Below, one piece after another: positions 21,770-61,327 of a stretch of 64,000 nt of DNA. This DNA is from Pseudomonadales bacterium. GTDB taxonomy: Bacteria; Pseudomonadota; Gammaproteobacteria; Pseudomonadales; Azotimanducaceae. The stretch lies in the NCBI GenBank assembly GCA_965116345.1, contig OZ220680.1, positions 3,976,330 to 4,040,329 on the forward strand, in the 5' to 3' direction. Made by a program: the position numbers and the translations under genes. Below the pieces are notes generated by a model. That model was not told the DNA's origin, did no database searches, and saw nothing but the letters and a program-made list of their open reading frames with translations. Position 1 is the stretch's first letter; each line of letters begins with the position of its first letter.

Positions 21770-22083
21770 CGAGGCCCGTTTGGGCGGCCGCGTTACCGAA
21801 CGATCTCTTGCCGTCGAGACGATCGATCGCAACGGTCGCCCCCATAAGCGCCAACCAGTTCTGGGTGCGCCGAATACGCGACGTACAGCAACCTACCCCA
21901 GGGAACCTACGGGTTCGACTGGCTCGAAGTTCCTTGGCTACTGGACGTTCAGTCCACTTGATTGGGACTTCAAGATGGCTGATGCCGCTGCGTGTCCAGA
22001 TCAGGCACCGGATTGCGCGTTTTCTATGTCCATAGGTCCGATATCGTGGGGCTTGGGTTGCGGGGGATGACGGCGACCAAAAC

Positions 22084-22308
22084 ATGAGGAAGTTCGGCGC
22101 GTTCCTAGTGTCGGTGGTGCTGGTGTTTCCAGCGGCGGTCTTGGCAATCGCTGGAATAGTCGGCCTGCTAGGATCGCTGGCCGACATTACGATGTCGGCG
22201 AGCATGCAGGTCCTGTTGTCAGGGGCTTGTCTGTTCGTGTCCATCGTGGTGGCGAACATGGCGTACTATTGGATCATCCGACGCATGGATGAGACATCGA
22301 ACGAGTGA
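22084..22308 (+). CDS. Small two-TM membrane protein, unknown function
   Basis: 74 aa with two hydrophobic helices and the charged tail RRMDETSNE; lies in the lower-GC islet. Confidence 0.5.
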   Translation: MRKFGAFLVSVVLVFPAAVLAIAGIVGLLGSLADITMSASMQVLLSGACLFVSIVVANMAYYWIIRRMDETSNE

Positions 22309-22528
22309 GGGACGCACAGTCTGTTGACTCCTGATCGCGGCTTGTACGTGTTCAGAACATCGCTTCGCACGCCAGTTGATGCGTTGTAGGACGGAGACGG
22401 GTACGCATGCGTGTTCCGTCGCGCATACTTGTGCGACGTTGGCACCGGAATGTTGGCGAAGCACCATCGCAACGTGGTCAACGGGATTGATGTTTGCGGG
22501 TGCGGGCAAGGTGGCACGGCTTAGAGCC

Positions 22529-22858
22529 ATGCGGCCTGTTCGGGCCGACTGCAGGGTGACGGACAACGGCACCGTCCTTAGTGCAGGTTCGAGCGCTAAT
22601 GTCCTGATCTATTCGAACAAGAACTGCCCGGCGGGAACCTCAGCGCAACTATGCCGCGAGGCTAGGGCCATCGCGAGGGAGATCCAAGCGGTTTACCAAG
22701 AGGTCAAGGAGGCCGTCGGTCCCAACGACCTTGTTAGGGTCGACTTGTACGACAAGCTACATCCAGGGGGCCCGCCGGACCCCGGCACAGGGGGAGTATC
22801 GCCGCCCTGGCCGGATCGACCTGCGGCGGGGCGCGCCCGCAAGTGCGATTCACCATGA
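22529..22858 (+). pseudogene. Possible N-terminal portion of the HEXXH protein, separated from it by a +1 frame change
   Basis: The ORF overlaps the next ORF by 128 nt in an adjacent frame. G5 runs at 22766-22770 and 22790-22794 are candidate slip sites. Coding status is uncertain. Confidence 0.35.
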
Positions 22859-23333
22859 GATGGGACATGCCTTCTTCAACGATCACATCCAGACTACAGG
22901 GCATCTTCAAGAATGGGGCTCGGAGGAGGGGATTGGTATGATCTTCGAGGAAGCGCTCGGGGCTGCGTCGCGACGCGACCCACGCGCGGCAACGGTCGAG
23001 GGCGTCCTACAAGTATGCTCAGTGGATCTTGACTGCGCCTACGAGTTAGGAAGGCTCGTAGCCAAGCGATACCGCGAGGTGAAAGAGATAAGGAACAAGG
23101 ACTACGCGCTCAAGGTGTACCTAGAGGCGGTGAGGAACGTTGAGGTGGCCGTGACTCCAGACTCGCTCGAAGAACGGGTGAACACCGAGATGGAGAGAAT
23201 TGACGGACGAGAAGACCACGCGGAGGACGATTATGTTAATGAGGACGAAGAGGAACGTGCGAATCGGGAGTTCGATAATTCACCCACTGACACCGGCTTC
23301 TTTGACGATTGGGATGAGAATTGGGAAGAATAG
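22731..23333 (+). CDS. HEXXH zinc-metalloprotease-like protein with a strongly acidic Trp-containing C-terminal tail
   Basis: IHHEMGHAFFNDH motif followed by EEGIGMIFEE (possible third ligand); tail DDYVNEDEEE..FFDDWDENWEE. No family recognised. Confidence 0.55.
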   Translation: MLGSTCTTSYIQGARRTPAQGEYRRPGRIDLRRGAPASAIHHEMGHAFFNDHIQTTGHLQEWGSEEGIGMIFEEALGAASRRDPRAATVEGVLQVCSVDLDCAYELGRLVAKRYREVKEIRNKDYALKVYLEAVRNVEVAVTPDSLEERVNTEMERIDGREDHAEDDYVNEDEEERANREFDNSPTDTGFFDDWDENWEE

Positions 23334-23449
23334 CGGGGCTCGCTCAATTTGGACGAATTCTTGGAGTCTCTAAGCAAGCTCGTCGGGCTCCCTCGCGACG
23401 CCGAAAGCCGAGGACCGCACTACGGCCCATGATAAGGGGCGGGAGGAAA

Positions 23450-24358
23450 ATGCAGGCGGTGATGGCGACGTTGCTGGCGGCGGTCCTGTTTGTCGTGCTG
23501 GCGTACTCGCGCAGTGGTGTGGACACGGGACTTCCCGTGGTCGAAACAGAGCGTGAGCCGGTGTCACCGCGACCCCCGCCGGCCACGCGGGTGGACCTGA
23601 CCGAGCCGGCGACCGGCACGGCGAAGGCCGCCGGGAAGGAATACGCGGCGCCGCCGTGCGACGGATGCCTCAACGAGCCCGAGGTACTGGACGTGGCAGA
23701 GACGTTCGTTTACCACATGCGCCATGAAAAACACATCGGCTTACGGGCCGAGCTTTACTCCGACATCGCCGCTAGCCTCGAGGCTGCGGGGCAGCCCGCT
23801 CCGCACGAGACGCGACTTCCTAAGCTTCCGCAGGGGCTGGTGGACGCTCCGCCGGATCGTTCGATGAGCGGCAGGGTGCTCCCCCTCGTGGATAGGCCAG
23901 CAGAGACCTGGGTTATCTGGGTGCAGGAAGGCTGGTTCGACACCCAGTCCTACATCGATGGCGGCATCCTTCCGCCGATCGCAGCCTCATGGCCACCACT
24001 CAAACATGAGAAGTTCATGCTCATAGATGCTCGCAGCGGTGAAGTGTTCGCGGATGACATTTGGCGTAGTAGACATCGTCGCAGTCTGGGTGCCTACGGA
24101 GATATTGCTGCGCAGGCTGCCGGGAAACGCGCCGAGCACTGGATCGCCAAGAGGTCAGTCCCCTGGCCCGCATTTGTCACCACGCCGCTTGTGCGAACAA
24201 CATATGCTTCGAATATCAGTTGCTTGTGTCGGAATCCCGAGGTGTCGGAATTTGCAGACTGCGCTGGCCGCGAGCGCGCGCTCCAAGGAGCGCGTTCGCA
24301 CGGGGCCAAAATCCTCGAACGCGCCCGCAAGGGCGCGCATCATCGCGGCCCGTGGTGA
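23450..24358 (+). CDS. Membrane-anchored protein, unknown function (weak PepSY-like motif)
   Basis: ATG 23450 after GGGAGG; TM ATLLAAVLFVVLAY; Pro-rich linker; FMLIDARSGEVF resembles the PepSY DAxTGEV signature. Confidence 0.55.
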   Translation: MQAVMATLLAAVLFVVLAYSRSGVDTGLPVVETEREPVSPRPPPATRVDLTEPATGTAKAAGKEYAAPPCDGCLNEPEVLDVAETFVYHMRHEKHIGLRAELYSDIAASLEAAGQPAPHETRLPKLPQGLVDAPPDRSMSGRVLPLVDRPAETWVIWVQEGWFDTQSYIDGGILPPIAASWPPLKHEKFMLIDARSGEVFADDIWRSRHRRSLGAYGDIAAQAAGKRAEHWIAKRSVPWPAFVTTPLVRTTYASNISCLCRNPEVSEFADCAGRERALQGARSHGAKILERARKGAHHRGPW

Positions 24359-24368
24359 GAAATTCGGG

Positions 24369-24525
24369 CTAGGTATCCTCTGATCAAGCCCGTCCATGGG
24401 CTTGATCAGGAGAAAAACAAAAGCGCGGTTTTGTTTTTCTGACAAATTCAGTGGCTTGCGCCACCGAATTTGGCGGCACGTCCTTGTGCCGCGCTAGGGA
24501 AGGTCTTAAATCAGACCTTCCCTAG
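24369..24525 (+). mobile_element. MITE-like element, copy B (157 bp)
   Basis: Identical to 18555-18710 except for one extra A in the terminal hairpin loop; flanked by CTAG on both sides. Confidence 0.85.
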
Positions 24526-45355: not shown

Positions 45356-45726
<371 letters not shown>

Positions 45727-52244: not shown

Positions 52245-53483
52245 CTACTGCACCGACGGGGAGTCGATAGACAATACGTTGCGGCCCTGGGCTTTGAGAT
52301 GACGTTCCGCGCGTGGTCGCACGTGTTGCCACTCTTCGTGGGACACCGGAGGCCCCACTTGCCGGGCAAGCCATTGGCGATCAAGGACCACACCCTGAGC
52401 GGTGGCCCAAGTGGCGGCTAGAAACGCATGAACCAGTCGGGCGTTGCGGTGGTCGCCGGGTCCCGGGTTCTTCCACCACTTGAGCTGGACGATCTCTGCC
52501 AGGAGGGGGTCGTCACGTTGCCACGAATTGGGTTCCGGGGCTCCGTATTTGTACGGCGAGCCAGTCAACCGGCCGGCGCGATGAATCTGATCGAGGCCCG
52601 CTGCGTACGTCATGAGTTGGTAGGCTTCCCATGCCTGTTCAGCCCACCACCACCCTTCCTGACCGGGCGCTGGTTCGTGGCCGACCGGTGCGGTGTTCGA
52701 GATTTTTGGCTTAAGCCGGGGATCTCTGCTAGGGAACGCCGAGTTGCGCCCCTCTGGAACGAACGAAGCCAACACGCCCTGGGGAATGGCCGCACACTTG
52801 GCGGCGAGCCAAGCGGCTCGGTAGTACCCTTTCTCGACCTCGGTGCGTCGTTGCCAATAGACGGTGTTGTCGGCCAAATCCCCCAAGCCGGCTCGTTCTA
52901 CGACTTCGTGGATTCCGGCTTCAATGTGACGGAGCATCTCGTAGCGCTTCCCGGCACACTGGTATTTGAGGACGCCGAACGAGGCCAAAGCGTCAAGGTC
53001 GCAGTCGGCGCCTGCATTCGCACACGAGCGCGTAAGAAGTGTCCGTTCAGCCCTGTCGCGCTTTTCGAGGGGAGACGAGAAAACCTCGCGCCAGTAGAGG
53101 GACCCGTCGGACGCGGCAATGGGCATATGGGACGGCGAAGTATCGAGGAGCTGTCGATCAAGCGCGGCCTCGCACGCGGGTGTTAGACCTCCACGCGCCG
53201 AGAGACGGTGCGCCATGGGCTCGGCTAGGGGACTGCAGAGTCCATAGATGTCCTCCCAACCAGCGGAGTCGTTCGTGGGCGCGACGCGTCGCGTCTGATC
53301 AGCGGCTTCGCGGGCGGGTATGGCGTGCGGCGTTGGCTCGGCCTGAGGGGACGTTTTCGCTTCGAGGGCTTCAGTGTCTAGCCAAACCCAGATAAACGCG
53401 CCGGCAAGGGTGCCGAAGGTGAGCGCCGCTAGCAATCCAAACGTTGTAGCAGGCGACCATCGCCTTGTGTCGTTCGCAGACAT
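52245..53483 (-). CDS. Hypothetical membrane-anchored protein (412 aa), no recognisable domain
   Basis: N-terminal TM FGLLAALTFGTLAGAFIWVWL, Trp/Cys-rich body; long uninterrupted ORF. Confidence 0.6.
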   Translation of the reverse strand: MSANDTRRWSPATTFGLLAALTFGTLAGAFIWVWLDTEALEAKTSPQAEPTPHAIPAREAADQTRRVAPTNDSAGWEDIYGLCSPLAEPMAHRLSARGGLTPACEAALDRQLLDTSPSHMPIAASDGSLYWREVFSSPLEKRDRAERTLLTRSCANAGADCDLDALASFGVLKYQCAGKRYEMLRHIEAGIHEVVERAGLGDLADNTVYWQRRTEVEKGYYRAAWLAAKCAAIPQGVLASFVPEGRNSAFPSRDPRLKPKISNTAPVGHEPAPGQEGWWWAEQAWEAYQLMTYAAGLDQIHRAGRLTGSPYKYGAPEPNSWQRDDPLLAEIVQLKWWKNPGPGDHRNARLVHAFLAATWATAQGVVLDRQWLARQVGPPVSHEEWQHVRPRAERHLKAQGRNVLSIDSPSVQ

Positions 53484-55736: not shown

Positions 55737-56675
55737 TCAGCGGAACTCCGGCATCACCTCCTCGGCGAACAACTGCGCCGGCTCCTGGGTGTCCTTGCCG
55801 AAGAACTCGATTACGAACATCGTGCAGCCCAGATCGATGTGCTTGTGGATCTGCTCGGCGCAGCGTTCCGGAGTGCCGGTAATGGCCAGCGGTCCCTTCG
55901 GATCGCCCATATGGCCGCCGAAGATGCGCTGCGCCTGGTCCGCCATGGGTTGTGCGCGCCGCGCATCAGGCGCGATGGTGACGAGGCACTGCTGGCTGGC
56001 GACGATCTCGCCCGGGTCGCGGCCGATGGCATCGCAGTGGCGTCGCAGAACGTCGATCTTGTGGTCGAGGGCCGCCTGGTGGCCCGCGGCGTTGTTCCAG
56101 ATGTCGGCATGCCGGGCGGTGATCTTCAGTGTGACACGCTCGCCGGCGCCACCGATCAGGATGGGTATCCGCCGCGGCGGCTTGGGTTGGCAGACGACGC
56201 CGCTGGCCTTGACGTATCGACCTTCGTAGGTGACTTCGTCCTCGTCGCTCCACATGCGCTTGAACAGTTCGACGGTCTCTTCGAGTTGAGCCAGGCGCCC
56301 AGGCGTGTCGAGAAACGGCAGCCCGAAGTCGGTGAACTCCCGCGGCATCCAGCCGCCGCCGAGTCCGGCGATGACGCGGCCGCCGGCGATGTTGTCCACG
56401 GTGGCGATCACCTTGCCGAGATGCGCCGGGTTGCGCATTCCGGCAGGTGTCACCAGGGTGCCCAGTTCGACGCGCTCGGTGATGGCCGCCACGGCGGCGA
56501 TCATGGACCAGGCCTCTAGGATGGGCAGTTGCGGCGACTGCGGGCCGTAGAGGTGGTCGCACACCCATAGCGAGTCGTAGCCCATCGCCTCGAAGGCACG
56601 GGCGGCATCCGCGGCGGCCACCCAGGGGCGCTTGATCTGGGGCAGGGTCACGCCGAAGTGGGCTTTCACAGTCAT
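55737..56675 (-). CDS. Luciferase-like monooxygenase (LLM) class flavin/F420-dependent oxidoreductase
   Basis: FGVTLPQ..YDSLWVCDHL, GGRVIAGLGGGW motifs typical of the LLM family. Confidence 0.8.
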   Translation of the reverse strand: MTVKAHFGVTLPQIKRPWVAAADAARAFEAMGYDSLWVCDHLYGPQSPQLPILEAWSMIAAVAAITERVELGTLVTPAGMRNPAHLGKVIATVDNIAGGRVIAGLGGGWMPREFTDFGLPFLDTPGRLAQLEETVELFKRMWSDEDEVTYEGRYVKASGVVCQPKPPRRIPILIGGAGERVTLKITARHADIWNNAAGHQAALDHKIDVLRRHCDAIGRDPGEIVASQQCLVTIAPDARRAQPMADQAQRIFGGHMGDPKGPLAITGTPERCAEQIHKHIDLGCTMFVIEFFGKDTQEPAQLFAEEVMPEFR

Positions 56676-56740
56676 GGTCGTCCCCGTATTTCGAACCGTC
56701 GGAACCAGCGTATCATCAAGCGGGAGGCGGGAGATTCGAC

Positions 56741-57712
56741 ATGGCGAGAATCGAGTTCGAGGTCATCGAAGGCTGGGAGAAGCTCCCGGAAGGCTGGAGC
56801 TTCGTCGAGGTGGCTGGGGTCGCCACCGACTCCGAGGACCGGGTGTACGCCTTCAACCGGGGTGAACACCCCATGATCATCTTCGACGCCGAAGGCAACT
56901 TCCTCGACGCCTGGGGGGAGGGCGTGTTCGCCAACGCCCACGGCATCCACATCGGCCCGGACGACCGGATCTACGCGGCGGACAACGTCGACCACACGGT
57001 GCGCATCTTCACGCCCGGTGGCGATCTCCTGCAGACGCTGGGCGAGAAGGACAAACCCGCGGATACCGGATTCGTGCCGGGTCGCTCGGGTGTGCAGTTC
57101 GGCGGCGGACCCTTCAACCGCGTCACCAACGTCGCGCTGTCGACCAGCGGAGAGATGTACGTCGCCGACGGCTATGGCAACGCCCGCGTACACAAGTTCT
57201 CCGCCGCCGGCGAGCACCAGTTCTCCTGGGGCGAACCGGGGCGGGGACCGGGCGAGTTTCGGCTGCCCCACGCCATCGCCGTGGACCGCGACGGCACCGT
57301 CTACGTCGCCGACCGCGAGAACTCGCGCATCCAGGTGTTCAAGGCCAACGGCGACTACGTCAAGGAGTGGACCCACATCGTCCGACCCGACGACCTGTAC
57401 ATCGATGATGACGATATCCTCTACGTCGCCGAGCTCGGCGAGATCGCCGGCCAGCCTCCCGACCACGAGATCCTGCCCCATACGCCCCACGCCCGGGTGA
57501 CGGTCATGGACCTCGACGGCGAGGTGATCACGCGGTTCGGCGGCAGGGATGCGGTGCGCCCCGGCAACTTCTTCGCGCCCCACGGCATCTGGTCGGATTC
57601 CAAGGGCGATCTGTATGTCTCGGAGGTGACCTACAGCGGCGGCGGCAACCGGGGGCTCGTCCCGCTCGACTGCCACTCGCTGCAGAAATTCGCGCGCATC
57701 CGCGCCGATTGA
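56741..57712 (+). CDS. NHL-repeat beta-propeller, peptidyl-alpha-hydroxyglycine alpha-amidating lyase (PAL)-like family
   Basis: Repeated YVAD..N.R[IV].[VK]F NHL units (MYVADGYGNARVHKF, VYVADRENSRIQVF, LYVSEV); no signal peptide. Confidence 0.75.
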   Translation: MARIEFEVIEGWEKLPEGWSFVEVAGVATDSEDRVYAFNRGEHPMIIFDAEGNFLDAWGEGVFANAHGIHIGPDDRIYAADNVDHTVRIFTPGGDLLQTLGEKDKPADTGFVPGRSGVQFGGGPFNRVTNVALSTSGEMYVADGYGNARVHKFSAAGEHQFSWGEPGRGPGEFRLPHAIAVDRDGTVYVADRENSRIQVFKANGDYVKEWTHIVRPDDLYIDDDDILYVAELGEIAGQPPDHEILPHTPHARVTVMDLDGEVITRFGGRDAVRPGNFFAPHGIWSDSKGDLYVSEVTYSGGGNRGLVPLDCHSLQKFARIRAD

Positions 57713-58509
57713 CACCGGTGTCCCGGCAACCCTCGTTGACGCGTCGGCTGATCGCCGTCAATTGTCTAAGCGCTCTGGCGGTCGGTACGAGCGTTCCGGC
57801 CATCTCCGCGGTCGAGTCGCTGACCGTGCGGGTGCAACGCGTCATACCCCACGAAACGGATGCCTCCACCCAGGGCCTTGTCTGGTGGCGGGGGAAGCTC
57901 TACGAGAGCACCGGCCGGCGGGGTCACTCGGACCTGCGGCGGATCGATCCGACCACCGGGAAGGTGGAGCGGCGCATGCCGATTTCGAAACTGTTCTTCG
58001 GCGAGGGCCTTGCCCAGGCGGGGGACCGCCTCGTCATGCTGACCTGGCACGCGGAGCAAGCCTTCGTATTCGGCATCCGCGACTTCGACCGTCGCGGCAC
58101 GTTCGGCTACCGCGGTGAAGGCTGGGGGTTGTGCCATGACGGCGAGGTATTCGTCATGAGCGACGGATCGGATCGGCTGGCGTTCCGGGACAGCGACTCG
58201 TTCGCCGTCGTCGGCAGCGTCGGCGTCACCCTCGATGGCCGGCCGGTGCGCCGCCTCAACGAGCTCGAATGCGTCGGCGGCGAGGTCTACGCGAACGTCT
58301 ACCTCGAGGACGTGATCGTCCGCATCGATCCGACGAGCGGTCGCGTCACCGGGCGTGTCGACGCATCCGGGCTGCTCGGACCGGAGGACGCCGTCCGCGC
58401 GGATGTACTGAACGGCATCGCCCACGTTGCCGAGACGGATCGCTTCCTCATCACCGGCAAGCTCTGGCCGAAGATGTTCGAAGTGACCTTCGTCGCTGAA
58501 GCCCGATAG
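57709..58509 (+). CDS. Glutaminyl-peptide cyclotransferase, plant/bacterial beta-propeller type
   Basis: Signal peptide; HETDASTQGLVWWRGKLYESTG, FGEGLA, ECVGGEVYANV motifs. TTG start overlaps the upstream stop. Confidence 0.8.
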   Translation: MTPVSRQPSLTRRLIAVNCLSALAVGTSVPAISAVESLTVRVQRVIPHETDASTQGLVWWRGKLYESTGRRGHSDLRRIDPTTGKVERRMPISKLFFGEGLAQAGDRLVMLTWHAEQAFVFGIRDFDRRGTFGYRGEGWGLCHDGEVFVMSDGSDRLAFRDSDSFAVVGSVGVTLDGRPVRRLNELECVGGEVYANVYLEDVIVRIDPTSGRVTGRVDASGLLGPEDAVRADVLNGIAHVAETDRFLITGKLWPKMFEVTFVAEAR

Positions 58510-58515
58510 CCGCCG

Positions 58516-59505
58516 ATGCGTCGGCGGGGAGACGTCGAGGAAATGCGCCTCGAGCGTGCCCTGGAGTCGATGGCGCCGGTGGTCGAGCGCTACGCCCCAC
58601 TGCTTCGTGAACGGTCTCCCGGGTTGGCGCTCTGGCGTGGGGCCGTTGCCGACGTGCAGGCGGGCAACCTGGATGACCGGTCGCTCTACTGGGCCCGCCT
58701 CAGGCTCCTGCGTATGCTGCGCGACGTTGACGAATCCGTGGCGGCTGTCGAGCGTGAGTCGCGGGGACTGCTCCGGACTTCGGATGGCGATGCGCCGGGC
58801 GTCCTACTGACGGGGTTCGACCCGTTTCGCCTGGATGCCGACATCGGCCAGAGCAACCCGTCCGGTCTCGCGGCGCTCGCGCTCGACGGCACGCTGATCG
58901 CGGGCTCGCGGGTACAGAGCGCCATCCTGCCGGTGCGTTATGCCGACTTCGACTCCGGCTTGGTCGAGGGCTACTTGGCAGCGCACTACACGAACGGGCT
59001 CGATCTTGCGGTGACCGTGAGCATGGGGCGCGATGCCTTTGATATCGAGAGATTTCCTGGTCGTCGGCGTTCGGCGACGAAACCCGACAATCGCGGCGAA
59101 TACGGAGGTGGGTCGCCGACCGAGCCCCACCCACCGCCGGATCTGGATGGTCCGGAGTTCCTGGAGTTCTCGCTACCCGGCGAGTCCATGGCGCGAGTGG
59201 GTGGGCAGTGGCCCGTTCGCGACAACCGCGACGTTCAGACGCTACGCGGGGCGCTTAGTGCGCGGTCGCTTGCCGATCTTCGCGGGGAGACCGCGGTCAG
59301 CGGATCGGGCGGTGGCTACCTGTCCAACGAGGTCGCCTATCGAAGCCTGCTGCTGGGCCGGCGCCTTGGCGTCGACTTTCCCATCGGTCACATCCACACA
59401 CCCGTTCTGCGGGGTCACGACGCGTCGTTGGAACGTGCCATCGTCGACCAGGTGCGTCGCCTGATCGAAGTGGCGCTCACACCGCAGGGCGACCGCATGC
59501 CGTAA
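58516..59505 (+). CDS. Pyroglutamyl-peptidase I (C15) homolog with Ser at the nucleophile position and a ~95 aa N-terminal extension
   Basis: VLLTGFDPF, FDIERF..KPDNRG (Glu), GGGYLSNEVAY (Ser where Cys is expected in TFVCNHLFY), IGHIHTP (His). Confidence 0.75.
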   Translation: MRRRGDVEEMRLERALESMAPVVERYAPLLRERSPGLALWRGAVADVQAGNLDDRSLYWARLRLLRMLRDVDESVAAVERESRGLLRTSDGDAPGVLLTGFDPFRLDADIGQSNPSGLAALALDGTLIAGSRVQSAILPVRYADFDSGLVEGYLAAHYTNGLDLAVTVSMGRDAFDIERFPGRRRSATKPDNRGEYGGGSPTEPHPPPDLDGPEFLEFSLPGESMARVGGQWPVRDNRDVQTLRGALSARSLADLRGETAVSGSGGGYLSNEVAYRSLLLGRRLGVDFPIGHIHTPVLRGHDASLERAIVDQVRRLIEVALTPQGDRMP

Positions 59506-60575: not shown

Positions 60576-60646
60576 TTGCTGGTTGTTGCGTCGTGAAAAA
60601 AGGCGTGCAACTTAGCGCGACCGGGCGCCTATGTACAATCAGCCGT

Positions 60647-61327
60647 ATGGCCGGGCGATCTCGCGAAGCGTACTTTCAGGCATTGGGTGTCGATGTATGG
60701 GTGCGCCGCGGGTCGCGTCAAGAACCGCCGTCGTCGGTCGTTGCGCCAGCCGATGATGCGCCAGCCGATGATGCGCCAGCCGACGACACCCAACCGCGTC
60801 CACGGTCGACTACCCGAGTCGAGCAGCACGCTCCGCTTCGCGACGATTCGAGGGGGAAACCGGCCCGCCGCGAACGTCGACCCGCCGCCTTGGCCCGAGG
60901 CGTTGACGAGGCCTTCCGAGTACGCTGTTTCCGCTACGGTCGGGTATTCGCGGCCATCGCCGAGGACGCCTGGGCCCAGCGCCGGTTCCTTGCCGACGTC
61001 GCCTGGGCCCTGAACGGCTTTCAACGTGCCGAGCGACGCGACCTAGTGTTCGATTGGCCCCAGCCGGGCGCGGCGGCCCAAGGCGGTGAGCGGGCATTCG
61101 CCGCGTTCTTCGGCCACCAGACGCGCACCCAGGACGACATCCGGGTGGTCGTCTCCGGTGAGCGCGTCGTGAAGCTGCTGGGCCACGAGGTACCGGACGA
61201 GTCGTGCTACCTGGGGGACTTGCTCTACGTCGTACCGACGGTCCCCGACGCGGCCGCCAAGAAGGCGCTATGGCAGCTAATCGTGAACGGCGCGAACGGA
61301 ACATCCGGGAATCGGGCACCTCGCTAG
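60647..61327 (+). CDS. holD: DNA polymerase III psi-subunit (HolD)-like protein
   Basis: N-terminal YFQALGVDVWVRR and C-terminal AAKKALWQLI parallel E. coli psi (LQQLGITQWSLRR, ARAALWQQI). holD...prfC neighbourhood as in E. coli. Confidence 0.6.
   Translation: MAGRSREAYFQALGVDVWVRRGSRQEPPSSVVAPADDAPADDAPADDTQPRPRSTTRVEQHAPLRDDSRGKPARRERRPAALARGVDEAFRVRCFRYGRVFAAIAEDAWAQRRFLADVAWALNGFQRAERRDLVFDWPQPGAAAQGGERAFAAFFGHQTRTQDDIRVVVSGERVVKLLGHEVPDESCYLGDLLYVVPTVPDAAAKKALWQLIVNGANGTSGNRAPR

Follow-up and report, generated by a model that had tools for sequence, protein, structure and literature searches.

A clade-restricted block of LLM, PAL-like, glutaminyl cyclase and C15-like genes in a marine gammaproteobacterium of the Azotimanducaceae type

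Layout of the locus

We analyzed a 64-kb stretch of DNA (the window) from a marine gammaproteobacterium of the Pseudomonadales/Azotimanducaceae type, and studied a block of four genes within it, encoding an LLM-class oxidoreductase (LLM), a PAL-like NHL protein (NHL), a glutaminyl cyclase (QC) and a C15-like protein of the PA0049 family (C15L) (Table 1). Direct reading of the sequence confirmed the four open reading frames, coordinates and junctions of the original prediction, including the 65-nt spacer between LLM and NHL. The NHL stop codon (TGA, 57710-57712) overlaps the QC start (TTG, 57709), and the QC stop codon (TAG, 58507-58509) is followed after a 6-nt gap by the C15L start (ATG, 58516). 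An alternative QC start, an in-frame TTG at 57736, is a better match to the start called for a 93%-identical ortholog; if real, it would leave a 23-nt NHL-QC spacer and shorten QC from 266 to 257 aa. The database copy of C15L begins at M10 (58543), but we prefer the start at 58516 because the family's N-terminal motif, D-x-E-E-x-R-L, sits upstream of M10, and because an 88%-identical homolog (P0002) begins MSRRGDVEE.

Table 1 Features of the four-gene block.
Feature	Position	Strand	Basis or remark
LLM-class (luciferase-like) oxidoreductase gene	55737-56675	-	ORF read from sequence
Divergent LLM/NHL control region, 65 nt	56676-56740	.	Sequence
PAL-like NHL gene	56741-57712	+	ORF read from sequence
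NHL candidate catalytic residues R40; H67; Y145	56858-60; 56939-41; 57173-75	+	Alignment to PAL
NHL candidate catalytic residues H177; R192; H281	57269-71; 57314-16; 57581-83	+	Alignment to PAL
QC (glutaminyl cyclase) gene	57709-58509	+	ORF read from sequence
QC N-terminal export leader, residues 1-34	57709-57810	+	Hydrophobic (KD 2.3); includes conserved Cys19
C15-like (PA0049-family) gene	58516-59505	+	ORF read from sequence
C15L triad Glu178-Ser270-His294	59047-49, 59323-25, 59395-97	+	Ser in place of Cys nucleophile

The LLM/NHL spacer contains a GGGAGG ribosome-binding site preceding NHL, and a conserved element, AGCGTATCAT (56707-56716), that includes a -10-like TATCAT. This element is kept in 9 of 11 aligned loci (L020 differs by one base), and in L003 it is retained in front of QC. 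A generic sigma-70 scan gave no match, so we assign AGCGTATCAT only a tentative promoter role. No terminator-like sites were found in a scan of NHL-QC-C15L, and the locus has no Rfam matches. The tight co-directional packing noted in the original prediction (junctions of overlap or at most 23 nt, and 6 nt), the lack of an internal terminator and the conserved TATCAT element imply, at the sequence level, that NHL, QC and C15L are co-transcribed. The 65-nt divergent region would then drive LLM leftward and NHL-QC-C15L rightward.

Properties of the four proteins

All four family assignments of the original prediction were recovered in Pfam, at scores well above the chance level: Bac_luciferase for LLM (7e-50), NHL repeats (2.5e-24), a full-length Glu_cyclase_2 domain for QC (1.9e-86) and Peptidase_C15 for C15L (8.9e-11, with the match spanning only half of the profile). 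The prediction had also cautioned that cytoplasmic and secreted members were mixed, and rightly so: QC has an export leader, while LLM, NHL and C15L are predicted to be leaderless. All four are real and apparently active enzyme genes.

LLM (312 aa) shares its TIM-barrel with F420-dependent LLM oxidoreductases and scores best against F420-type subfamilies. It reaches 221.4 bits against NCBIfam TIGR03560 (F420 Rv1855c type), slightly under the cut-off of 231.4, and the flavin/F420 cofactor assignment is putative. Among PDB structures, it comes closest to a putative LLM (3RAO), Mer and F420-dependent dehydrogenases. NtaA and EmoA, LLM monooxygenases that free glyoxylate from N-carboxymethyl groups, and NRPS monooxygenase domains are chemical analogues, but LLM is only distantly similar to the NtaA-type alpha-hydroxylating enzymes (62.9 against a cut-off of 279.7 for NtaA/DmoA). 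The earlier proposal that LLM supplies a PHM-like hydroxylation step thus fares poorly, as the best scores belong to hydride-transfer subfamilies. LLM would be a cytoplasmic flavin/F420-type oxidoreductase whose gain, retention and loss in this clade go hand in hand with those of the lyase, and it may produce or consume the lyase's substrate.

NHL (323 aa) is a six-bladed beta-propeller that is predicted to be cytoplasmic because it lacks a leader; the N-termini of its homologs begin M-x-RIEFEVI. The top Foldseek match of its AlphaFold (AF2) model (pLDDT 90.8) is rat PALcc, the PAL domain of peptidylglycine alpha-amidating monooxygenase (3FVZ; E 1.6e-18, TM 0.74, 24% identity). R40, H67, Y145, H177, R192 and H281 align to PAL R533, H585, Y654, H690, R706 and H786, and all six are invariant in 32 homologs. 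The predicted likeness to PAL therefore holds, with counterparts of the Zn-ligand His, catalytic Tyr and Arg residues all present. Unlike PAL, NHL lacks a signal peptide and is not routed for secretion, has no PHM copper monooxygenase partner at the locus, and carries Gly282 in place of the Ca-ligand Asp787; it is a stand-alone bacterial protein whose very conserved family has more than 7000 database matches. To our knowledge no bacterial PAL-like NHL protein has been characterized, and we found none in the literature. NHL would be a Zn-type PAL-family lyase that cleaves N-acyl-alpha-hydroxyglycine-type carbinolamides, N-C(OH)(COOH), into an amide and glyoxylate. It probably acts on a small molecule or a free peptide, since NHL-family genes elsewhere adjoin generic catabolic genes (SDR, Zn-ADH, ECH, DAO and TctC genes at the other surveyed loci).

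QC is a plant-type (type I) enzyme that matches the bacterial QC structures 3NOL, 3MBR and 3NOK at 1e-57 to 4e-47 (3NOL at 1e-57). All four catalytic residues defined in papaya QC, Q24/E69/N155/K225 (PMC5837995), are kept as Q55, E99, N184 and K251. We found no essential difference from papaya QC (2FAW/2IWA), Xanthomonas XcQC (3MBR) or Zymomonas QC (3NOL), although at the Q24 position XcQC has Glu and the window's QC has Gln. The export leader, common to most bacterial plant-type QCs, is present in 15 of 15 orthologs examined. Exported and with its active site intact, QC would turn the N-terminal Gln or Glu of envelope and secreted proteins into pyroGlu. The physiological substrates of proteobacterial QCs are not established (PMC10653852). 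As in the Bacteroidetes Q-rule system (PgQC and signal peptidase I substrates), pyroglutamylation of envelope proteins would be the expected task of an exported cyclase (PMC5837995, PMC10653852). PgQC, however, is an essential, animal-type (type II) enzyme; the Q-rule is not demonstrated for Proteobacteria, and a linked peptidase is not described for the Bacteroidetes system.

C15L (329 aa) comprises a helical PA0049_N domain (~residues 1-85) and a complete pyroglutamyl-peptidase I (PGP-I, C15) fold, and an identical database protein carries PF27118 (PA0049_N) and PF01470. The top 34 Foldseek matches of its AF2 model (pLDDT 89.9) are all PGP-I, matched over whole structures with TM 0.71-0.77. 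C15L shares with PGP-I (MEROPS C15; D. radiodurans 5Z48, P. furiosus 1IOF) the whole fold, the triad's Glu and His, and the GFxPF, NPS, LPV and PDN-G motifs; these pocket motifs and IHxP are conserved across the PA0049 family. The family differs from PGP-I in using Ser rather than Cys and in its extra ~85-aa helical N-terminal domain, and the insert that separates the PDN motif from the nucleophile is longer in C15L. The Glu-Ser-His triad is invariant in 33 homologs, and the nucleophile position is Ser in 142 of 143 aligned, 50%-identity representatives of the family. The original description of C15L as a C15 pyroglutamyl-peptidase homolog is thus correct as to homology and fold, but a canonical PGP-I is ruled out by the Ser nucleophile, the extra domain and NCBIfam equivalog scores far below cut-off (TIGR00504, 35 bits against 202). 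Because the nucleophile is Ser, pyroglutamyl-peptidase activity is only putative.

Two-domain architecture and triad are common to C15L and the PA0049 family, a large family named after P. aeruginosa PA0049 for which we found no experimentally known function in the literature. Members in Shewanella, Ferrimonas, Kangiella and other loci outside the clade have a signal peptide ending directly before the VEExR motif, whereas those of the window's clade are leaderless; the former would therefore function in the periplasm, without a linked QC. C15L appears to be an active hydrolase, a serine-type omega/exopeptidase-like enzyme that would act on a pyroGlu-like N-terminal group.

Gene neighborhoods in related genomes

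We scored adjacency in surveys anchored on C15L (79 distinct genome loci), NHL (84 loci, 45-85% identity) and QC (4 loci). In all three, genes of the block were adjacent only within one Pseudomonadales/Azotimanducaceae clade. QC lay immediately upstream of C15L at 11 of the 79 loci, joined by NHL at 7, all in this clade; neither gene was found at any of ~55 Shewanella/Ferrimonas/Kangiella loci, where C15L sits in sprT-endA-rsmE-gshB synteny. The NHL-anchored survey recovered the block only in the two closest relatives, and the three families were never adjacent in ~160 loci outside the clade.

Within the clade, we found all four genes together, LLM-NHL-QC, QC and C15L beside a disrupted LLM and a deleted NHL, QC and C15L only (L015/L021), and each gene alone. 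Three loci (L169-L171) keep ArsC..LLM-NHL-QC-aroG..prfC without C15L, and one (L172) has QC alone. In L001-3/L010, an insertion of ~100 nt interrupts LLM, and all that is left of NHL is a stub of 10 codons joined to the QC leader; QC and C15L are intact there. C15L stands without an adjacent QC in at least nine clade members, as at all Shewanella-type and other out-clade loci. A neighbor-joining tree places QC-linked loci in one clade only, with "alone" loci interspersed, and the adjacency fits one origin with at least four later break-ups. The original prediction of a single peptide-terminus module is not supported by this survey, as any one of the genes can be lost while others stay. As noted earlier, the window holds no precursor-peptide ORF; nor did we find a protease or dedicated exporter within its 64 kb, the remainder of which is core chromosome.

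Interpretation of the block

On balance, we favor the view that the locus is a clade-restricted operon of separately functioning enzymes rather than one pathway. The genes would have joined once in the clade ancestor and later been lost or separated independently. The confinement of adjacency to one clade, the occurrence of every sub-combination, the mixed compartments and the missing linked precursor, protease and exporter all support this reading. Counting against it, the four genes have stayed together in at least two different flanking contexts (the APH/ArsC/aroG flanks are missing at L004/L020 and L008), 16 of the best 120 QC matches lie on same-sized contigs as a top C15L match, and chance adjacency of two pyroGlu-chemistry families is a priori unlikely.

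The perfect co-occurrence and joint decay of LLM and NHL within the clade also count against separate functions. LLM orthologs (82-96% identity) occur only in this clade and always with NHL (at least 13 loci), LLM is disrupted or missing wherever NHL is deleted or missing, and most loci share a divergent 65-107-nt spacer with the conserved element. Given also the invariant PAL catalytic set, LLM and the lyase could form a two-step, copper-independent unit for oxidative N-C-alpha cleavage parallel to PHM and PAL, an arrangement we regard as possible but not probable. LLM would hydroxylate or oxidize an N-acylglycine or glycine-extended substrate at its glycyl alpha-carbon, and the lyase would free a primary amide and glyoxylate, in a catabolic or amide-forming role. 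Flavin/F420 enzymes that hydroxylate glycine C-alpha in nonribosomal peptide amide formation provide a precedent (PMC12912966), yet LLM resembles hydride-transfer rather than O2-activating enzymes, and the co-loss comes from one lineage. Outside the clade, LLM-family genes occur near NHL at 0.29 per 10 kb versus 0.41 at control loci, just one is directly adjacent, and NHL relatives of 76-78% identity have ArsC, not LLM, immediately upstream.

A further observation counting against separate functions is that QC-C15L spacing fits translational coupling, with stop and start abutting or overlapping, in 13 of 15 loci. QC and C15L might thus form a functional pair, with LLM and NHL as unrelated passengers: exported QC would block the N-termini of envelope proteins, and the cytoplasmic serine-type hydrolase would unblock recycled or imported pyroGlu-peptides. 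The pair persists without LLM and NHL (L015, L021) and after NHL deletion (L003/L010), the QC active site and the PGP-I fold and pocket motifs of C15L are intact, and in P. gingivalis, where pyroGlu shields proteins from aminopeptidases, the pyroGlu made by QC stabilizes exported proteins (PMC10653852). We nevertheless consider such a pair unlikely: its adjacency is limited to one clade and repeatedly broken, each gene occurs without the other, out-clade PA0049 proteins are exported without a linked QC, the top matches include no QC-C15 fusions, and the Ser nucleophile leaves the peptidase activity putative.

That all four proteins act on one ribosomal peptide class encoded elsewhere in the genome (LLM and the lyase in C-terminal amidation, QC and C15L in N-terminal pyroGlu formation and removal) would suit their seemingly competent active sites, probable co-transcription and retention in two flanking contexts, but is very improbable: the comparative-genomic pattern of independent losses argues strongly against it. 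The 64-kb window holds no precursor, leader protease or exporter, and QC alone is exported, which also counts against this model. In the bacterial RiPP systems whose amidation has been characterized, moreover, the step is carried out by alpha-ketoglutarate-dependent non-haem iron enzymes or by MNIO (multinuclear non-haem iron oxidative) enzymes rather than by PAL (PMC12912966).

For the preferred reading of separately functioning enzymes, independent loss after one joining would make co-transcription inherited synteny and at most a loose functional convenience, not an obligate peptide-maturation pathway. The leads worth following would be the uncharacterized bacterial PAL-like family and the Ser-type C15 family.

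Arrangement of the four genes

The four genes under study encode a luciferase-like oxidoreductase (LLM), a propeller protein (NHL) resembling PAL, the lyase domain of peptidylglycine alpha-amidating monooxygenase, a glutaminyl cyclase (QC), and a C15-like protein of the PA0049 family (C15L). Direct reading of the window bore out the predicted open reading frames and their junctions, with a possible refinement of the QC start. The divergent LLM and NHL starts lie 65 nt apart. The NHL stop codon (TGA, 57710-57712) overlaps a TTG at 57709; an in-frame TTG at 57736 matches the start called for a 93%-identical QC ortholog, and if this is the true QC start, 23 nt separate NHL from QC and the overlap disappears. 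Between the QC stop (TAG, 58507-58509) and the C15-like ATG at 58516 there are 6 nt. The database copy of the C15-like protein (P0001) begins at Met10. Because Met10 falls downstream of the family's N-terminal D-x-E-E-x-R-L motif, and the database protein P0002 (88% identity) begins MSRRGDVEE, we consider 58516 the preferable start.

Coordinates of features in the window
Feature	Coordinates	Strand	Description
LLM	55737-56675	-	ORF
NHL	56741-57712	+	ORF
QC	57709-58509	+	ORF
C15-like	58516-59505	+	ORF
AGCGTATCAT element	56707-56716		LLM/NHL divergent spacer
-10-like TATCAT	56711-56716		within the AGCGTATCAT element
RNase P RNA, bacterial class A	45359-45726	+	Rfam RF00010, 306.9 bits
Lower-GC stretch	21770-24520
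ORF in lower-GC stretch	22376-22858
ORF in lower-GC stretch	22731-23333
ORF in lower-GC stretch	23321-24358
412-aa ORF	52245-53483	-	no Pfam/NCBIfam match
244-aa ORF	60593-61327	+	no Pfam/NCBIfam match

The AGCGTATCAT element is conserved in the LLM/NHL spacer and includes a -10-like hexamer that precedes the NHL start codon by ~25 nt. The element is found in 9 of 11 aligned loci (numbered with an L for neighborhoods in other genomes), with a one-base variant in L020, and is kept in L003, where it precedes QC. Among the 15 loci with QC and C15L adjacent, there are 13 in which the C15L start directly adjoins or overlaps the QC stop. We found no terminator-like site inside NHL-QC-C15L, no Rfam family match across the four-gene locus, and nothing in a generic sigma-70 scan of the locus. 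Supported by the AGCGTATCAT element, we infer that NHL-QC-C15L would form one rightward transcription unit, and co-transcription of the four genes appears very likely.

At window positions 58507-58518, the QC and C15-like frames coincide and are parted by the TAG and two proline codons (CCG CCG), an arrangement in which stop read-through would yield an exported QC-C15L fusion. We rejected such a fusion: in L001, L004 and L005 the two genes are in different frames, and the window arrangement looks coincidental. No QC-C15 domain fusion occurs among the best 120 matches of either family.

The window has a GC content of ~66%, and its closest relatives are Pseudomonadales/'Candidatus Azotimanducaceae' MAGs. 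The remainder is core chromosome, including genes for GroEL, RND efflux, rpoN/lptB, hisD, cytochrome bc1, leucine catabolism, aroG and prfC, along with RNase P RNA, the window's sole Rfam match to exceed the gathering score. In one stretch GC is reduced to 0.61 and GC skew is elevated to 0.117, and no ORF in it passed our codon-position GC filter. Loci of the clade share the 244-aa ORF, placed between aroG and prfC, at 43-79% identity.

Catalytic features of the encoded proteins

The QC matches Glu_cyclase_2 at 290 bits (cut-off 22.3; 1.9e-86), spanning positions 4-249 of the 249 in the profile, and the solved bacterial QC 3NOL at 1.3e-57. Counted along the 2FAW alignment, the papaya QC catalytic residues Q24, E69, N155 and K225 (PMC5837995) are all matched in the window protein, by Q55, E99, N184 and K251. 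A hydrophobic leader and a conserved cysteine precede the VESLT start of the propeller in 15 of 15 orthologs, in agreement with the export of most bacterial plant-type QCs (PMC5837995). The window QC is likewise predicted to be exported, through a Sec leader of the signal peptidase I or lipoprotein type. With its full-length domain, four catalytic residues and predicted leader, the gene fits the secreted plant-type glutaminyl cyclase originally proposed. The cysteine (Cys19 in the window, 57763-57765) lies inside the hydrophobic segment or at its end there and in the L003-L024 orthologs; the surrounding sequence fits a lipobox in some (VVAC, L003) and not in others (AVNC, window). We also rejected the idea that QC carries the leaderless C15-like protein along by Tat-dependent "hitch-hiking", as the twin arginine (TRR) of the window QC leader is not conserved in orthologs.

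By sequence, the NHL protein is nearer to generic NHL propellers (Thin, TRIM71) than to PAL, which ranks 16th among its PDB matches (5.9e-21). Its AF2 model (pLDDT 90.8, ~24 strands in blades) is a six-bladed beta-propeller with the rat PALcc structure 3FVZ as best Foldseek match (E 1.6e-18, TM 0.74). For BLASTP we used a rat PALcc sequence whose numbering reproduces the published R533, Y654, H690, R706 and H786; the phmmer coordinates of the NHL protein against 3fvz_A are consistent with this alignment. Two NHL fragment queries, run to obtain a printed phmmer PAL alignment, returned generic NHL/WD40 matches only.

Counterparts of PAL active-site residues (rat PAM numbering) in the NHL protein
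NHL protein	Window motif	PAL motif	PAL residue	Role in PAL	Basis
R40	FNRGEH	FHRGDH	R533	substrate binding	BLASTP, rat PALcc
H67	NAHGI	LPHGL	H585	Zn ligand	BLASTP, rat PALcc
Y145	ADGYGN	SDGYCN	Y654	catalytic	BLASTP, rat PALcc
H177	LPHAI	VPHSL	H690	Zn ligand	BLASTP, rat PALcc
R192	ADRENS	ADRENG	R706	substrate binding	BLASTP, rat PALcc
H281	APHGI	MPHDI	H786	Zn ligand	blade-6 motif only, outside BLASTP alignment

All six counterparts are invariant in 32 homologs. The structural Ca2+ site of PAL lacks its Asp787 side chain here, with Gly282, right after H281, at that position; the remaining PAL Ca ligands are backbone carbonyls, so this comparison by sequence covers Asp787 only. The protein is thus PAL-like, as first proposed, in its fold and its catalytic Tyr, Arg and His counterparts, and differs at this one Ca ligand; the loss of catalytic residues that would have spoken against the original proposal is not seen. 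Lyase activity on peptidyl-alpha-hydroxyglycine is putative. PAL is located in the secretory pathway and paired with the PHM copper monooxygenase, whereas the NHL protein shares neither property: it and ~70 homologs have no leader and begin at M-x-RIEFEVI, and we found no PHM-like gene in the window. The bacterial PAL-like family as a whole is very large, highly conserved and leaderless, and keeps the complete PAL catalytic set. To our knowledge, none of its members has been characterized.

The C15-like protein matches only the N-terminal half of the Pfam Peptidase_C15 profile, and it scores far below the cut-offs of the NCBIfam equivalogs for pyroglutamyl-peptidase I (PGP-I; TIGR00504, 35.1 against 201.75). 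Its AlphaFold model (pLDDT 89.9) nonetheless superposes on whole PGP-I structures, and the best 34 Foldseek matches are all PGP-I (TM 0.71-0.77, target-normalized). Where PGP-I uses a Glu-Cys-His triad, this protein retains Glu178 and His294 and has Ser270 in place of the cysteine; against D. radiodurans PGP-I, the Glu (FDIERF) and His (GHIHTP) motifs are kept and GGGYLSNE aligns with SAGLYVCNF at the nucleophile. PGP-I is a single domain of ~210 aa, whereas the C15-like protein has 329 aa and an extra N-terminal domain, modeled as helices at residues 2-73. The assignment of this domain to PF27118 (PA0049_N) comes from the precomputed Pfam annotation of the identical protein P0001, which, like most other proteins among the best 120 matches, combines PF27118 with PF01470. 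Of the pyroglutamyl-peptidase homolog originally proposed, then, the PGP-I fold holds, and the Glu-Cys-His triad, the equivalog score and the single-domain size do not.

At 50% identity the PA0049/C15-like family comprises 1243 clusters at E<=1e-3 and 366 at E<=1e-30. The Glu, Ser and His of the triad are invariant in 33 close homologs, and among 149 diverse representatives they occupy 144/149 (Glu), 142/143 (Ser) and 141/142 (His) aligned positions. Judged from these alignments, the serine nucleophile is a family trait and not decay, and within the pyroglutamyl-peptidase fold the PA0049 family forms a separate branch with a Glu-Ser-His triad. In the literature, PA0049 itself was found only within transcriptome lists, and an exact-sequence database look-up of the window's C15-like protein returned no record. 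C15-like proteins from Shewanella, Ferrimonas, Kangiella and others outside the clade (L025-L084) carry a classical signal peptide ending just before VEExR(L/I), and 27 of 28 proteins from the window's clade have no leader and begin at the VEExR motif. The window start thus corresponds approximately to the mature N-terminus of the exported forms, and the family appears, from these N-termini, to reside in the periplasm or in the cytoplasm depending on the lineage. Many distant members (P0394, P0429, P0432, P0453, P0465 and others) are multidomain proteins of 600-1769 aa with the module C-terminal.

The LLM protein matches Bac_luciferase at 7e-50. Its best NCBIfam model is TIGR03560 (F420-dependent Rv1855c type), where its 221.4 bits fall just short of the 231.4 cut-off; with the NtaA/DmoA monooxygenase model it reaches only 63 bits, and its PDB neighbors are Mer and F420-dependent dehydrogenases. 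We found no F420 biosynthesis genes in the window.

Gene neighborhoods in other genomes

We surveyed neighborhoods anchored on the C15-like gene (80 reference-genome loci and 4 contigs, giving 79 distinct loci). QC lies immediately upstream in 11 distinct loci, 7 of which also have NHL, and all QC-linked loci come from Pseudomonadales/Azotimanducaceae MAGs. In ~55 Shewanella, Ferrimonas and Kangiella loci, neither LLM, NHL nor QC was ever found beside the C15-like gene, which sits there in a housekeeping sprT-endA-rsmE-gshB neighborhood. A survey anchored on NHL (4 + 80 loci, 45-85% identity, from marine, soil and sediment samples) found LLM, QC and C15L only at the two closest relatives, L089 and L090. 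Of the other recurrent NHL neighbors (SDR, TctC, enoyl-CoA hydratase, Zn-ADH and DAO-type oxidase), none occurs in more than 9 of the ~48 loci whose flanks were long enough, and no universal partner emerged for either the PAL-like or the PA0049 family. General enrichment of LLM genes beside PAL-like genes was rejected, with 0.29 per 10 kb against 0.41 in same-order control loci.

On the QC side, 16 of the 120 best matches lie on contigs equal in length to that of one of the best C15-like matches, suggesting that the QC-C15L pair is common within the clade. Three QC-anchored loci (L169, L170, L171) read ArsC..LLM(-)-NHL-QC-aroG(-)..prfC and have no C15-like gene; at a fourth, L172, QC stands alone.

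Gene combinations found within the clade
Combination	Number	Loci
All four genes	10 loci	window, L005-L008, L020, L022, L024, L089, L090
LLM-NHL-QC	3 loci
QC-C15L only	2 loci	L015, L021
QC 4-8 kb from C15L	2 loci
C15L alone	9 loci
LLM disrupted, NHL deleted, QC-C15L intact	1 lineage	L001-3, L010

In the lineage with a disrupted LLM (L003:6014-7260, L010:7996-9200), a ~100-nt insertion at about residue 75 splits the gene and shifts its frame. All that is left of NHL is the ribosome-binding region and the ten initial codons (MARRIEFEVI), fused in frame ahead of the QC leader, and QC and C15L are intact. In a neighbor-joining tree of C15-like proteins, the QC-linked genes fall in one clade with "alone" genes interspersed, a pattern that suggests one origin of the QC linkage followed by at least 4 break-ups. 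A more distant lineage (L092:3131-10127) has the order PQQ-DH, ArsC, NHL (76% identity), Ldh_2, C15L (43% identity), methyltransferase; there NHL has a C15-like gene close by but no QC, and another gene stands at the QC position. L085 and L091 likewise have ArsC immediately upstream of NHL.

Separable enzymes or a single module

Together, these data indicate that the four enzymes are real and probably catalytically competent. A single peptide-terminus modification module is not supported, because the adjacency is phylogenetically confined and repeatedly broken, each gene is dispensable with respect to the rest, QC is exported and the other three are leaderless, and the locus has no linked precursor, protease or exporter. 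A scan of ORFs over the 64-kb window turned up no precursor peptide, leader protease or exporter, and the cluster has no intergenic room. Two reservations of the original prediction, the missing precursor ORF and the mixed cytoplasmic and secreted locations, were well placed. The co-function it proposed is not supported by the survey, in which adjacency was confined to one clade, with all sub-combinations found.

Two weaker, pairwise relationships are plausible. The LLM monooxygenases NtaA and EmoA release glyoxylate from N-carboxymethyl groups. Alongside this chemistry, flavin/F420-dependent enzymes that hydroxylate the glycine C-alpha en route to amides, documented in nonribosomal pathways (PMC12912966), make a two-step N-C-alpha cleavage unit of LLM and the PAL-like protein chemically coherent. 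The two genes always occur together within the clade, the divergent control region is common to both, and they decayed jointly in one lineage; outside the clade, however, the pairing has no support. QC and the PA0049-family protein may likewise stand in a relationship in which pyroGlu is made outside the cell and unmade inside. Their tight junction and common tie to pyroGlu chemistry favor this reading, as does the finding that QC-made pyroGlu shields exported proteins from aminopeptidases in P. gingivalis (PMC10653852). Each gene nevertheless persists without the other, and the Ser nucleophile leaves the pyroGlu-peptidase activity of the PA0049-family protein unproven. We consider it very improbable that the operon is a copper-independent bacterial counterpart of eukaryotic peptide-terminus processing, in which LLM and the PAL-like protein would produce primary amides from glycine-extended peptides or N-acylglycines, and QC and the Ser-type PGP-like protein would set and reset pyroGlu N-termini, on signaling or protective peptides encoded elsewhere.

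Each of the four genes belongs to an already recognized family: three are already named by NCBI and Pfam, and the fourth has a Pfam architecture. Were the four one system, bacteria would have in it their first analogue of eukaryotic peptide-hormone end-processing; the genome comparisons speak against this, which saves effort on that idea. What remains of value is an uncharacterized bacterial PAL-like family whose catalytic set is intact, together with the Ser-type C15 (PA0049) family. The co-inherited LLM and PAL-like genes offer a concrete candidate pair for N-C-alpha cleavage chemistry, and the QC-PA0049 junction, recurrent in one clade, is the only current genomic hint tying the PA0049 family to pyroGlu metabolism.
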